Shown piece by piece: positions 2,816 through 8,910 of a stretch of 8,910 bases of DNA (position 1 is its first letter; each line of letters starts with the position of its first letter). Position numbers and translations under genes: made by a program. This DNA comes from a virus. Its lineage: Duplodnaviria > Heunggongvirae > Uroviricota > Caudoviricetes. The notes under the pieces are model-generated. The model ran no database searches and was not told the origin of the DNA. It was given only the letters and a program-made list of their open reading frames with translations. The stretch lies in IMG/VR virus record IMGVR_UViG_2526164621_000016; one strand, 5' to 3'.

Positions 2816-2906
2816 TAGACTGGCCCCCTGAATCTCCAGACAACCAGTATCACTTATTTAAGTGATAGTCTTAATACTAGTTTTTAGACTAGTCATTGGA
2901 GAACAG

Positions 2907-3335
2907 ATGATTGATGTCTTAGGGCCGGAGAAACGCAGACGGCGTACCACACAGGAAAAGATCGCAATTGTTCAGCAGAGCTTTGAACCGGGGATGACGG
3001 TCTCCCTCGTTGCCCGGCAACATGGTGTAGCAGCCAGCCAGCTATTTCTCTGGCGTAAGCAATACCAGGAAGGAAGTCTTACTGCTGTGGCCGCCGCAGT
3101 CGTCACACTGATGATACGGATGTGCTTCTCCGTATACACCATGTTATCGGAGAGCTGCCCACGTATGGTTATCGTCGGGTATGGGCGCTGCTTCGCAGAC
3201 AGGCAGAACTTGATGGTATGCCTGCGATCAATGCCAAACGTGTTTACCGGCTCATGCGCCAGAATGCGCTGTTGCTTGAGCGAAAACCTGCTGTACCGCC
3301 ATCGAAACGGGCACATACAGGCAGAGTGGCCGTGA
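2907..3335 (+). CDS. insC: IS2 InsC (OrfA) with aberrant C-terminus caused by the internal deletion
   Basis: ATG at 2907. The first ~62 residues match recalled IS2 InsC; after the deletion junction (about 3089..3097) the frame reads out-of-frame insD sequence until a stop. Confidence 0.6.
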
Positions 3336-3874
3336 AAGAAAGCAATCAGCGATGGTGCTCTGACGGGTTCGAGTTCTGCTGTGATAACGGAGAGAGACTG
3401 CGTGTCACGTTCGCGCTGGACTGCTGTGATCGTGAGGTACTGCACTGGGCGGTGACTACCGGCGGCTTCAACAGTGAAACAGTACAGGACGTCATGCTGG
3501 GAGCGGTGGAACGCCGCTTCGGCAACGATCTTCCGTCGTCTCCAGTGGAGTGGCTGACGGATAATGGTTCATGCTACCGGGCTAATGAAACACGCCAGTT
3601 CGCCCGGATGTTGGGACTTGAACCGAAGAACACGGCGGTGCGGAGTCCGGAGAGTAACGGAATAGCAGAGAGCTTCGTGAAAACGATAAAGCGTGACTAC
3701 ATCAGTATCATGCCCAAACCAGACGGGTTAACGGCAGCAAAGAACCTTGCAGAGGCGTTCGAGCATTATAACGAATGGCATCCGCATAGTGCGCTGGGTT
3801 ATCGCTCGCCACGGGAATATCTGCGGCAGCGGGCTTGTAATGGGTTAAGTGATAACAGATGTCTGGAAATATAG
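3122..3874 (+). CDS. insD: IS2 InsD (OrfB) transposase catalytic part, missing its N-terminus and the orfA-orfB frameshift window
   Basis: 250-aa [45 protein letters not shown]…[29 protein letters not shown] matches recalled InsD from about residue 50 onward. The frame is open back to the deletion junction (…SRHTDDTDV…). Confidence 0.75.
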
Positions 3875-3885
3875 GGGCAAATCCA

Positions 3886-3890
3886 GCGGA
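3886..3890. repeat. 5-bp target-site duplication (GCGGA), right copy, flanking IS2
   Basis: Identical to 2811..2815. Confidence 0.8.
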
Positions 3891-4771
3891 ATACACGCTG
3901 ACTATTAGCATAAACATCCAGAATACCGTCTCCATTCTGTTTAAATCCGGTGTCATTATCACCAAGAACAATTGAATTCCCCCCCAGGGCGTTCTGAACG
4001 CCGATACCCAGCGCACCATTGACCTGCGAACCACCGCCAACAGACACTTTATGCGACATGGATATTTCACCCGTCCGCAAATTAATGGTGAACGGGCGCA
4101 GGGGACCAATATCGCCATTTTCCCCCTGACCTTCACTGGTGGGAATAAGGTGCAGGCACTCTTCCGAACGACGAAAAATCAGGCCAAAAGCTTCGTTGAA
4201 AATCCTCAGCGCATTAACACCACGGATTTTCAGCTCTCCGGTTATTTTATCGCCTTCCCGATGAACATAGCGTTGATCTGACTGCTCTTTACTGTAAACC
4301 TGAAGATTATCCCGTGCCGTCCCTTTATTCTGAAGGTCTGACAGATTGTTCTTCTGCCGCAGGAATATCCTTTTCGGATCCTCAAGAAGATTTACCCAGC
4401 CCGCACTGTCGGAGCCTTCAGGATCGGTCAGGTTATCGTCCGTGGTATTCAGCCAGACCGCTGTTGTTGCGACTCCGGCGAGAATGGCTCCTTTTGCATA
4501 TCCACCAATGGCCCCCGCAAAACCGGCATTATACGTGTACAAACCGCCAGCCTGGGCGAACCGTATTGCTGCGGTAATATCGTACATCAGACCGTTAAAA
4601 TCCTTGCCGTGTGGCGGTATACCTCCCGCTGAGACCGCTGTCATGGTCACCGGAGGAAAACCTGAATCATACGCAGCATTACCGCTCTCTCTGGTCTGCT
4701 GTGTCGCCTTGTCCGGGATACGGTTTTTATCTCCGGTACTCGCAAAGGGGACCGCCAGCTGGCGGGGTTTA

Positions 4772-5377
4772 TCACTGGCCTTCATTACGGGACTCCTTTA
4801 AAACTACTGAAACATAAACACCCGGCGGGGATGGCAGTGCACCCGACGACTGGATAATCGCCAGTTCTGCCAACGAGAGCGCGGACTCAAAGACGTAACT
4901 CATCCTCAGCCCGCCATTATTCAGAACATAAGCCCGGCGTTTTTTTCCGAACATAAATCTCAGCATCAGGTTAATATCCGGAACGGAACAGTCAGTAATG
5001 TTCGACATGGCTTTCATCAGTATCAGCCGCCGGTATACAGCATCAGACAGGTCAACAGTCCGGGTATCCGATTTTCCGTTGTAAAACGGTGCCTGATTAA
5101 ACGGACAGGGATCATCCATTACCGGGGTGTCCATCCTGGACTCGCTGAAGCCCAGGTAATTAAAATCGTCCTTTACCGTCAGCCAGCGACTGACACCCAC
5201 AATCTTTCCCCAGACATCAAGACCATACTTTTCTGCGGTATCGATGTTCCAGATAAGACCATAAAAATCACTGATAAAACTGTCGGGGGAAAGCGCTGCG
5301 TTAAAGCTGTTAATGAGGGCATTGAGTCGGGGGCTGGCAGCATACTGCGCAAGCACAGTGGCAGCCACATTCTGCAC
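4772..5377 (-). CDS. phage tail/baseplate protein in the gpI-like position (201 aa)
   Basis: Intact ORF with GTG start at 5377 and AGGAGG 6-8 nt upstream. It lies between the J-like gene and the tail fibre, and its stop overlaps the tail-fibre start by 14 nt, so it is operon-coupled. Assignment is by synteny; no motif was recognised with certainty. Confidence 0.5.
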
Positions 5378-5378
5378 G

Positions 5379-6075
5379 TTATGCCTCCTGGAGTTTCACA
5401 CTGATATCCGACACATCCAGAACCGGAATCTCATCTATCCCGAAAGTGACAGCCGTTGTCCATGACGAACCATCACGGCTCACAGTAAGGCCCAGAATAT
5501 CAATATGTTCCGGATCGGTTTTGTAAATGCCGGCATAGTAGCGCCCGGCAGAGACAACAGAGGCAACTCTTGCCCGCAGACCACCATCTGTACCATTAAA
5601 TGCGTCCAGCACGGATTGCTGTACCTGTCGGGTAATATCTGAAGGCAGGTAGTCACTTTTTTTCAGCGTCACACTGACATGCAGACTGACGGGTTTGAGT
5701 GTCTGCCAGCTGATCACGTATTCAGGATACGGCGGATCGTACTCCTTATCTGCAACAGTGAACGTTGTGTTGCCATTCATATCAATACCCGGCGGAGCCT
5801 TACGCCAGATGGCCGCCGCGATATCTGCCGGGCTGCCGCCGTACACGCCAACATAAAGCGAACCGGGTGTTAATGGATACTGACTCCGGCTTTTTGTTCT
5901 GTTTTTTCGGATTATGGGTGACGTAAACATCCACCACGTTTTCTACCGTGGAGAGTATTTCACCCCGGATGGCTTCCAGAATATTCCGGGCATTACGGGC
6001 AACTGAATTACGTCGGCGGTTTTCAAAGTCCGCACGGGTTTCCTCATCGCTGCCCGGCACACCGGCACGGGCGTT
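5379..6075 (-). pseudogene. baseplate J/gp47-like protein, 5'-truncated by IS600 and carrying a +1 frameshift
   Basis: Two overlapping minus-strand ORFs (5800..6060 and 5379..5930) in different frames. The upstream frame runs open straight into the IS600 left end, so the N-terminus is missing. The frame switch maps to the homopolymer runs at 5891..5907. Family assignment is by position upstream of the I-like and tail-fibre genes. Confidence 0.5.
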
Positions 6076-6139
6076 TGAGGTAGCCTGAGTTTAACGGACA
6101 CTCCTTCCTGAAATAGAATGGCATCAGAAGGAGCTAATA

Positions 6140-6442
6140 ATGAGCAGAAAAACCCAACGTTACTCTAAAGAGTTCAAAGCCGAAGCTGTCAGAACGGTTC
6201 TTGAAAATCAACTTTCGATCAGTGAAGGCGCTTCCCGATTATCTCTTCCTGAAGGCACTTTAGGACAATGGGTTACCGCCGCCAGAAAAGGGCTCGGTAC
6301 TCCTGGTTCCCGCACGGTGGCTGAACTGGAATCTGAAATTCTGCAACTGCGTAAGGCGTTAAATGAAGCTCGCCTTGAGCGAGATATATTAAAAAAAGCA
6401 ACAGCGTATTTTGCACAGGAGTCGCTGAAAAATACGCGTTAA
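6140..6442 (+). CDS. IS600 OrfA (transposase N-terminal DNA-binding protein, 100 aa)
   Basis: ATG 6140 with AAGGAG 7-12 nt upstream; helix-turn-helix-like N-terminus and leucine-zipper-like C-terminus typical of IS3-family OrfA. Confidence 0.85.
   Translation: MSRKTQRYSKEFKAEAVRTVLENQLSISEGASRLSLPEGTLGQWVTAARKGLGTPGSRTVAELESEILQLRKALNEARLERDILKKATAYFAQESLKNTR
6391..6397 (+). other. candidate programmed -1 ribosomal frameshift slippery heptamer (A AAA AAA followed by G) between IS600 orfA and orfB
   Basis: A7 run positioned so that orfA-frame codons are AAA AAA. A -1 shift enters the orfB frame (codon starts congruent to 1 mod 3, same as the ORF at 6478). This is the standard IS3-family OrfAB mechanism. 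Confidence 0.6.
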
Positions 6443-6477
6443 TCGAACAATGGCGACAACAATTTCCCATTGAAGCG

Positions 6478-7295
6478 ATGTGTCAGGTATTTGGTGTATC
6501 CAGGAGCGGTTATTACAACTGGGTACAGCATGAACCCTCAGACAGAAAACAAAGTGATGAGCGGCTAAAACTGGAGATTAAGGTGGCACATATCCGCACT
6601 CGCGAAACATATGGAACCCGGCGGCTCCAGACGGAGCTGGCAGAGAATGGCATCATCGTTGGTCGTGACCGACTGGCACGTCTTCGTAAGAGCTAAGGCT
6701 ACGCTGTAAGCAGAAACGCAAGTTCAGAGCGACTACGAACCCGAACCACAATCTGCCAGTTGCGCCAAATCTGCTGAACCAGACGTTCGCTCCTACAGCA
6801 CCAAATCAGGTCTGGGTGGCGGACCTGACGTATGTTGCCACACAGGAAGGATGGTTGTACCTCGCTGGCATCAAAGATGTTTATACGTGCGAAATTGTCG
6901 GCTACGCCATGGGAGAGCGCATGACAAAAGAGCTGACAGGTAAAGCCCTGTTTATGGCGCTCAGGAGCCAGCGCCCACCTGCCGGGCTAATCCACCACTC
7001 TGATCGAGGTTCACAGTACTGCGCATACGATTACCGGGTCATACAGGAGCAGTTTGGTCTGAAAACATCAATGTCGCGTAAAGGTAACTGTTACGACAAC
7101 GCTCCGATGGAAAGCTTCTGGGGAACGCTGAAAAATGAGAGCCTGAGCCACTATCGTTTTAATAACCGGGATGAAGCCATCTCAGTAATACGGGAATACA
7201 TTGAGATTTTCTACAATCGTCAGCGTCGTCACTCTCGTCTGGGGAATATCTCCCCGGCAGCCTTCAGGGAAAAACATCATCAGATGGCTGCTTAA
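6478..7295 (+). pseudogene. IS600 OrfB (DDE transposase catalytic domain), split by a 1-bp frameshift near 6690
   Basis: ORFs 6478..6696 and 6816..7295 lie in different frames. Inserting one G after 6690 (CGTAAG-AGCTAAGG) would give the continuous sequence …RLRKELRLRCKQKRKF…VWVADLTYVATQEGWLY…HSDRGSQY…, with DDE-type motifs in the second part. Confidence 0.8.
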
Positions 7296-7338
7296 AAAAA
7301 GAACAAATGGTAGTGTCCGCTATTGCCAGTACACCTCA

Positions 7339-8435
7339 TTTTACAGCCCCGTCCGGGCTGTATGTTTTCACCAGCTTATCCAGTGATCGTTTTGAAAATG
7401 GCTGCATTGGATCACGTGGCTGCAAAAATACATAATCCCTGTTGCACTCAGGAACTGAATCACGCCAGGCTTTCTGCTCGTCGATAATCCGCCGGATCTC
7501 AGGCGTTATCGGCAGGCGGAAAGCCTTTTGTGTTTTCATAGCCCCTCGCATGCCGATAACCCCTTCCGGATAAACAATTTCACCAGCCTCCTCGTAAACG
7601 TAGTCCCAGCGCAGGTTATGGACATTAATCGGACGAACACCAGTGATGATCATGAAGCGAACAGCATTCTTCTGGTGTACAGAGGTGCAGGCAGCAACAT
7701 TGAGCCAGAGTCGGGCGATTGATTCAATATCGGTAAAAAGCCGTGTGGGGGTAGGTTTCTGTACGCGGGAGGAAACATAATCATCTGGCAGACTGGCGGC
7801 AACATTGCGGCCGTTGCAAAGAGTAGGTGCGCAGAACTTCCAGAACCGACGGAGCTCGGCAAACAACTCCAGGGCGTTATTGTTCGAGCGAGTGGCGATC
7901 CACTCGTCCAGCACTTCCACCAGCCGATTGTATGTTACGTCGCTGAACACCTCACGCTCGCCGAACGTTACTTTAATCCGGTCGATACGCACCCCGTAGG
8001 TTGTGAAACTGTCCGGGCTCAGCTTCTGCCGGGCTACTTTGGCTTTGGGTCATCCCGGTACATTTCCAGCGCTGCATGTACGGACTCTGCCCGCAGTCCA
8101 CCGTCAGCCATACCTAGTGCTTTTTCGCGCGCCAGCTGGATAACGAGCTCCGGCCACTCGCCGAGCTTTTTACCTTTGAGGCCCATCTTTTTTGGAAACT
8201 CGGCGTAAAATGTAACCTTACCGGCTTTGCTGAAATCGATACGGAGATAGTTCTCTTTTTCGTATTTGGAACAGCGAGCCACGCCGGAAGCAGCGAGGAT
8301 GATTTTGGCGGCAGCAACACAGATTTTCATGTGTGCGCTGGTATAGGGGGGTTTACAGGCGTCCCATTTTTCAGATGCGGCTAAAACATCGTCATTATTG
8401 GGGCTATCCGGATTATGTGTTACAGTGCGCGGCAT
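7339..8435 (-). pseudogene. int: tyrosine recombinase / phage integrase, frameshifted near 8037..8045 and 3'-truncated by IS600
   Basis: N-terminal ORF (8034..8441) has an arm-binding-type region (…KVTFYAEFPKKMGLKGKKLGEWPELVIQLAREKA…). The second ORF (7336..7992), in another frame, continues upstream as …VARQKLSPDSFTTYGVRIDRIK… and carries the start of the catalytic domain (…FMIITGVRPINVHNLRWDYV…KTQKAFRLPIT…). Its stop codon lies inside the IS600 terminus, so the catalytic H-x-x-R…Y region is missing. The start codon is uncertain (ATG 8435 or 8330). Confidence 0.75.
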
Positions 8436-8570
8436 TCTCAATCCTTATCTGCGTAGGCGCAGAAAACAAGCTCACACATACAAGTCTTTTCTACGGGACA
8501 AAATGCAATGTGTTGCGGTTTTGTGTTGCTGGACTGAGTTTATCAAGGTTAAATACACTGGATCAACATA

Positions 8571-8617
8571 CAGTAAGTTAATGACAGTAAAGCATACAAA
8601 CTCGATACAACTTACTG
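8571..8617. repeat. perfect 9-bp inverted repeat (CAGTAAGTT … AACTTACTG) with 29-bp spacer in the int-yfhL intergenic region
   Basis: Read directly from the sequence: 8571..8579 and 8609..8617 are exact reverse complements. Confidence 0.5.
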
Positions 8618-8640
8618 ATTTTAAAATGATTTAACGGTAA

Positions 8641-8910
<270 letters not shown>

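Follow-up and report, generated by a model that had tools for sequence, protein, structure and literature searches.

The sequence analyzed here is the 8,910-nucleotide (nt) window of IMG/VR virus record IMGVR_UViG_2526164621_000016, in which a copy of the insertion sequence (IS) IS600 separates a truncated integrase gene (int) from a truncated gene for a baseplate protein of the J/gp47 family (J). Read from right to left, the window contains yfhL, int, IS600, the J fragments, a DUF2612 gene and a tail-fibre gene cut by IS2; beyond the latter come a tail-fibre assembly gene, a second tail-fibre gene (phage_tail_N) and the start of a DUF4376 gene. Pfam matches back the integrase, DUF2612, Caudo_TAP and phage_tail_N assignments. 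The window is Shigella flexneri chromosome: an exact-protein look-up found the DUF2612 protein and a 218-residue integrase fragment in complete S. flexneri chromosomes, among them AE005674.2 (strain 301), AE014073.1 (2457T), CP000266.1 (8401), CP001383.1 (2002017) and others, and CP001383.1 was the closest, with no mismatch. The window represents the left end of a decayed S. flexneri prophage. Each complete S. flexneri locus aligned has the gene order lepA-lepB-rnc-era-recO-pdxJ-acpS-shoB-yfhL, then the remnant, then yfhH-yfhB, with tail fibres, ipaH and pin at the yfhH end of the remnant and ipaH just beyond the window edge.

The IS600 copy is 1,263 bp long and matches, with 99.6% identity over 1,264 bp, a copy annotated as "IS3-like element IS600 family transposase" in enteroinvasive Escherichia coli (EIEC) VL40. 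It has the ends TGAGGT...ACCTCA, and its terminal inverted repeats are imperfect (20 of 30 positions matching). The left inverted repeat (IRL) adjoins the 3' 700 nt of J, and the right one (IRR) adjoins the first 1,098 nt of the 1,398-nt integrase gene (table 1). A preliminary description, made from the letters of the window, had the integrase frame running into the right end of IS600 and the J-like frame into its left end, which we confirm: IRR falls at int codon 366 and IRL at J codon 181. The minus-strand J frame from 6075 begins NARAGVPGSDEETRADF, that is, codon 181 onward of the 413-residue VL40 J/gp47, and the last residues of the integrase frame are ...SPDGAVK, its TGA stop codon being supplied by the complement of the TCA with which IS600 ends.

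Table 1. Features of the window bearing on the prophage remnant, from right to left
Feature	Position	Strand	Basis
yfhL (4Fe-4S ferredoxin)	8650..8910	+	annotated yfhL in IAI1, VL40, K-12; alignment with K-12 yfhL
left attachment site (attL) core AATTGTGATATGTGTGAA = yfhL nt 31–48	8680..8697	no strand	K-12 empty site compared with window
integrase pseudogene (codons 1–366 of 465)	7339..8435	-	PF00589, 30.6 bits; 99% DNA identity to IAI1 integrase gene
right 3-bp flank TTT	7339..7341	no strand	read from sequence, intact int compared
IS600 (IS3 family)	6076..7338	+	99.6% identity to annotated VL40 copy; IRL from 6076, IRR to 7338
left 3-bp flank GTT	6073..6075	no strand	read from sequence, intact J compared
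baseplate J/gp47 pseudogene (from codon 181 of 413)	5379..6075	-	98.7% identity to VL40 J
DUF2612/Phage_Wedge1 baseplate gene, intact	4772..5377	-	PF11041, E = 2.8e-64
tail-fibre gene 5' part, cut by IS2	3886–4785	-	list of open reading frames
IS2 within tail-fibre gene	2816..3885	+	GCGGA 5-bp duplication

The preliminary description had further noted that the 3-bp sequences on the two sides of IS600 differ and had concluded that this is no simple insertion. This holds as well: the left flank is GTT and the right one TTT, and the 3-bp target-site duplication is absent, as is to be expected when the copy lies at the joint of a deletion. Two control elements did show duplications, namely the IS600 copy of VL40, flanked by GGG on both sides (a normal 3-bp duplication), and the IS2 of the window, flanked by GCGGA on both sides (2811–2815 and 3886–3890; a clean 5-bp duplication). 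At the breakpoints the intact relatives described below read GGCGTT/AGTGAC in J and TATTCC/TTTTAC in int (the slash marking the breakpoint), and comparison with these intact sequences revealed neither target duplication nor microhomology at the IS600 junctions. Because GTT and TTT match intact J and intact int, each flank is native, and neither derives from the other by mutation. The same correspondence, each triplet being equal to the intact gene on its own side, makes it extremely improbable that IS600 simply inserted into an earlier int–J deletion joint and that its duplication mutated later, a history in favor of which nothing specific speaks.

Near-intact prophages of the same family occupy the same chromosomal site in two relatives. 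EIEC VL40 carries a 52-kb prophage between yfhL and yfhH, whose first half runs from yfhL through int, early genes, a family-A DNA polymerase, a DUF5906 primase-helicase and a Q antiterminator to holin/lysozyme genes, and whose second half comprises terminase, portal, head, sheath (DUF3383), tube, tape measure, baseplate, J, DUF2612, tail fibres, ipaH and pin, before yfhH. E. coli IAI1 carries a 42-kb, IS-free prophage with a complete 465-residue integrase, whose gene shows 99% DNA identity to that of the window. This integrase gene lies next to yfhL in 160 of 5,426 complete E. coli genomes (~3%). The alignment of both flanks to intact relatives, which the preliminary description had set as a check, defines the missing segment: int and J are on the same strand in both prophages, and the breakpoints lie 41,330 bp (41.3 kb) apart in VL40 (NZ_CM177011.1:1211559–1252888, or 6560–47889 of the VL40 locus), about 4 kb of this interval being IS elements, and ~34.9 kb apart in IAI1 (NC_011741.1:2729198–2764127). 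A natural adjacency of int and J, which would speak against a deletion, was looked for in these intact same-site relatives; the two genes are not adjacent there, and the deletion stands. In the VL40 prophage there are five or six IS elements, one of which is an IS600 located inside the interval lost in S. flexneri and in the opposite orientation; an IS600 interrupts the VL40 sheath gene.

The deleted span extends from int nt 1,099 to J nt 540 and amounts to ~35 kb of phage DNA (41 kb in the IS-laden relative). This span comprises the 3'-terminal 300 nt of int, every early, replication, regulatory and lysis gene, the genes for head, sheath, tube, tape measure and hub, and the 5'-terminal 540 nt of J. 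In VL40 and IAI1 the regulatory, replication, lysis and capsid genes and most tail genes lie between int and J, so that the gene content of these prophages bears out the loss of regulatory, replication, capsid and most tail functions that had been proposed beforehand. Colinearity, the breakpoints, and the size and gene content of the lost block are direct observations, as is the fixation of the junction in the species described below. Because the remnant keeps the gene order of the intact prophage, with a single internal block missing, and both of its ends are native, the event was a deletion and not an inversion. An IS600-associated removal of the DNA between the 3' end of int and the middle of J, as first suggested from the window, is thus supported by the colinear VL40 and IAI1 prophages, and we put the probability that an IS600-associated internal deletion took out the prophage core in the S. 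flexneri ancestor at about 0.88. According to this scenario, the ancestral prophage would have run from attL through int, early and replication genes, Q, lysis genes, terminase, head, contractile tail, baseplate, J, DUF2612 and tail fibres to the ipaH cargo, pin and the right attachment site (attR). The IS600-associated deletion would then have taken out the segment between the two breakpoints, leaving a single IS600 whose flanks would derive from two different target sites, hence without a 3-bp duplication, and later decay would have added frameshifts in the truncated genes int' and J'.

The same junction recurs throughout the species. We compared 15 complete-genome loci corresponding to 12 distinct chromosome records (the same record being counted more than once and one locus being left out). 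Positions 3088–8910 of the window align in one piece over both IS600 junctions in all 15 loci, including those of strains 301, 2457T and 8401, and both junctions are base-for-base identical in 15 of 15, Sanger-era genomes included. The junction was therefore fixed before the S. flexneri lineages split. The preliminary description had itself raised the possibility of an assembly artefact, arising by collapse over a multi-copy IS. Several homopolymer single-base indels in the window do suggest an error-prone assembly, but the junction is the same in many independent finished genomes produced with different technologies and in different laboratories, which excludes an artefact for all practical purposes.

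We also considered, and after finding the same prophage at yfhL in VL40 and IAI1 rejected, a candidate history in which two unrelated loci were joined by inversion. More generally, recombination between IS600 copies of unrelated loci, by inversion or translocation, would mean that int and J were never parts of a single element or that the lost block survives elsewhere. This is very improbable. It would be in line with the tail module of EIEC CFSAN029787, the best E. coli match to the left half of the window, which is 97–98% identical to the window and adjoins sitABCD at another chromosomal site, far from yfhL, and with four draft S. flexneri assemblies (UDVJ01000021, UDPI01000017, UDWW01000005 and UDQA01000004) that link yfhL-int'-IS600 to other regions, namely tig/clpPX, csgDEFG, proC/aroL with another integrase fragment, and gltBD. 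However, int and J form part of one prophage at the same site in VL40 and IAI1, and native neighbours and orientation are kept at both prophage ends in all complete S. flexneri genomes examined. Moreover, had an inversion taken place between one IS600 copy in int and another in J, J' would now adjoin the 3' end of int instead of its 5' part, so that an inversion does not fit the structure observed. The four odd joins occur in short-read scaffolds only, one of them with a 25-bp anomaly inside the IS, and are either real IS600-mediated rearrangements or scaffolding errors. Finally, no S. flexneri-labelled protein covering the lost integrase C-terminus was present among the cluster members examined.

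The deletion accounts for the pseudogene status of both int and J. The integrase lacks its last 300 nt (99 of 465 residues) and hence a complete C-terminal catalytic region; judging from the architecture of the family, the lost residues probably include the catalytic tyrosine nucleophile. The PF00589 match (30.6 bits, with a cut-off of 27.1) covers residues 98–211 of the 218-residue fragment and profile positions 14–117 of 172. In the window the integrase is split over two frames, 8441–8034 and 7992–7336. As for J, the intact VL40 protein matches PF04865 at residues 90–241 (E = 7e-13), and the breakpoint falls in the middle of this Baseplate_J domain; the window fragment, which starts at residue 181, has no Pfam match by itself, and its DNA is 98.7% identical to VL40 J. 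A 1-bp deletion near 8047 in int' and a 4-bp deletion at 5878 in J' are common to the other strains and absent from 8401, which has an unbroken 366-residue int' and a 225-residue J'; these frameshifts are therefore younger than the junction. A further 1-bp deletion in J', at 5901, is found only in the window among the S. flexneri genomes compared. The VL40 integrase gene was independently cut by an IS1 (6614–7311 of the VL40 locus), ~50 bp downstream of the S. flexneri IS600 site.

The preliminary description spoke of an adjacent deletion or a recombination. The deletion stands, and the end structure is the same for the two routes, so that structure cannot separate them. In the first, a second, directly oriented IS600 would have inserted into the same prophage and the two copies would have undergone homologous recombination, and we give this route about an even chance. 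It is plausible because related prophages gather many IS elements, as in VL40, and because the IS600 copy at the locus shows signs of exchange: it has nine single-nucleotide polymorphism (SNP) sites among strains, with four-gamete violations, compared with no SNP in 2,843 bp of flanks (strains other than 8401), a mosaic that suggests exchange or gene conversion between IS600 copies. In the second, a single resident IS600, first inserted in int (with TTT duplicated) or in J (with GTT duplicated), would have deleted adjacent DNA by intramolecular transposition. This route is a serious contender, though a somewhat less probable one. It requires one event fewer, and both junctions lie exactly at the IS ends, like transposase-made joints. 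There is also a precedent in the E. coli long-term evolution experiment, in which IS150 made 14 duplication-less deletions, ranging from 14 bp to 48.9 kb, near pre-existing copies (Ngan et al. 2024, PMC11708052). The resemblance extends to the IS3 family, to the absence of the usual 3-bp duplication at the deletion joint and to a scale of tens of kilobases, but the pre-existing IS150 copies were seen at earlier time points (PMC11708052), whereas no intermediate was found for IS600 here. Against an adjacent deletion also stand the many IS600 copies per Shigella genome, with which the present copy shows exchange, and a product that is indistinguishable from that of two-copy recombination. Multi-step histories take the remainder of the probability.

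Several points nevertheless weigh against an IS600-associated deletion of the prophage core. We searched for intermediates by building the synthetic junctions of a simple insertion at either site, int...TTT joined to IRL (3' side of int) and IRR joined to GTT...J (5' side of J), comparing them by BLAST with the 5,426 complete E. coli genomes and scoring full-length matches: each hypothetical junction was found in none of them, and this absence of a single-insertion intermediate also counts against the adjacent-deletion route. Second, the absence of the lost block elsewhere, supported rather than proven, rests on colinearity and on non-exhaustive searches with protein fragments. In such a search the lost int C-terminus was not found in S. 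flexneri, the S. flexneri-labelled fragments listed all coming from the retained part, and the matches were E. coli, Citrobacter and Klebsiella fragments. The search with the J N-terminus found frameshifted J genes in S. dysenteriae and S. boydii, within independent same-family remnants that have IS66-type elements as their borders near fieF/pnuC, together with four draft "S. flexneri" contigs that carry the genes from sheath to J, pass the nt-540 breakpoint and end ~110 nt further on (J nt 650). These contigs fit the presence of a second, related prophage in those isolates, with the contig broken at a repeat boundary, and not a reciprocal product of the deletion. Third, the SNP mosaic of IS600 could in part be a polishing artefact of multi-copy repeats. 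Lastly, the catalytic role of the lost 99 residues is putative: Pfam aligns profile positions 14–117 of 172 only, even for the full-length integrase.

Comparison with known phages leads us to revise one element of the preliminary description, which had placed the remnant in a P2-like layout. P2-like prophages do resemble it in that a J/gp47-family gene for the baseplate of a contractile tail precedes the genes for tail fibres and their assembly. However, the neighbour of J is here a DUF2612/Phage_Wedge1 gene and not gpI, and the tail genes match E217/Pam3 Pfam families. The phage also has a Q antiterminator, a lambda-type holin, a family-A DNA polymerase (PolA) and an integrase reading away from attL. 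Neither the P2 gene order (V W J I H G) nor a P2-type early region was found, and the assignment was rejected in favor of a phage that combines a Q/holin region of lambdoid type with a family-A DNA polymerase and a contractile tail of the E217/Pam3 type. A DNA search of phage records gave the same picture: P2-like phage DNA matches just ~300 bp of the tail-fibre gene, and no sequenced phage in these records matches the J/DUF2612 region. The DUF2612 gene adjoins J in this phage family, and an identical protein is found in many S. flexneri genomes.

The integration site is located inside the 5' end of yfhL, as shown by comparison of the K-12 empty site with the occupied loci. The attL core lies within yfhL, attR was identified beside yfhH, outside the window (K-12 empty site compared with S. 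flexneri, VL40 and IAI1), and int starts ~245 bp from the attL core, placing the integrase next to its own attachment site. At attL, phage DNA provides the first 30 nt of yfhL, where the K-12 start reads MALLITKKCI, and the displaced native 5' end of yfhL is still present at attR next to yfhH in S. flexneri, VL40 and IAI1. Thanks to this replacement start supplied by the phage, yfhL remains intact in lysogens. A tRNA attachment target was considered and rejected, since the window contains no tRNA gene and the attachment site is inside yfhL. The deletion explains why the S. flexneri yfhL locus holds a 12-kb remnant and not a 42–52 kb prophage.

IS-mediated deletion in Shigella is textbook knowledge, and ipaH-bearing prophage remnants form a recognised type of island in S. 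flexneri; in the genome paper of strain 301 the prophage-borne chromosomal ipaH loci are reportedly called "ipaH islands." The yfhL remnant appears to be one of these loci, with nothing essential to set it apart. It shares with cryptic (grounded) E. coli prophages and ipaH loci its attachment sites, a dead integrase, tail-fibre genes and a virulence cargo gene. The yfhL prophage locus is not mentioned in a paper devoted to ipaH (PMC9046306). IS expansion and IS-mediated deletion have been described as defining features of Shigella genomes, IS600 being among five IS expanded in every Shigella species (Hawkey et al. 2020, PMC7373316). The present case agrees with that work in the IS involved and in the loss of genes at an IS copy, here fixed before the S. 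flexneri lineages split, but that analysis was genome-wide and, in the part of the article considered here, does not describe the yfhL prophage deletion (PMC7373316). What we report is thus an ordinary case of an already known process, IS-driven prophage decay, in a heavily studied genome. The sequence of the locus has been present in reference genomes for two decades, and the import of the finding beyond annotation is small; it provides a clean, datable instance of IS-associated prophage grounding beside an ipaH effector gene. Because all excision, lysis and virion genes have been lost, the remnant and the neighbouring ipaH are locked in the chromosome. One may speculate that the deletion was selected rather than a product of neutral decay, the prophage being grounded in one step through loss of the integrase active site along with the excision, lysis and virion genes, and the type III secretion system effector gene ipaH made permanent in the S. 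flexneri ancestor, with related lineages reaching the same end through IS1 in int (EIEC VL40) or IS66-type elements (S. dysenteriae), but we regard this as unlikely. In S. dysenteriae chromosomes, what remains is a tail module near fieF/pnuC with an IS66-type element on either side; IS1 and IS2 lie inside it, and its J is frameshifted.

Some minor features of the window deserve mention. In IS600, orfA (6140–6442) is intact, with an A7G slippery motif at about 6389–6396, and orfB, which ends at 7295, is split by a 1-bp deletion at 6689 present only in the window; other strains encode an intact 385-residue orfA-orfB fusion with HTH_Tnp_1 and rve domains, and the deletion may be a sequencing error. 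Window-only single-base indels are found at 409, 461, 1757, 2216, 2640, 2718, 5901 and 6689, mostly in A or T runs. This pattern looks like homopolymer sequencing error and throws doubt on the orfB frameshift. The IS2 of the window shows an internal deletion of ~261 bp between two GGCCGCCG repeats, with the joint near 3088–3099, which may be real or an assembly error; a full-length IS2 lies at the same site in all other S. flexneri loci examined. The VL40 tail-fibre gene carries an independent IS2, with the duplication TTTTG and not GCGGA. Finally, positions 88–188, in the DUF4376 gene, show dense substitutions relative to other S. flexneri strains, which also differ among themselves, and this segment near the end of the tail-fibre region looks mosaic or recombined.

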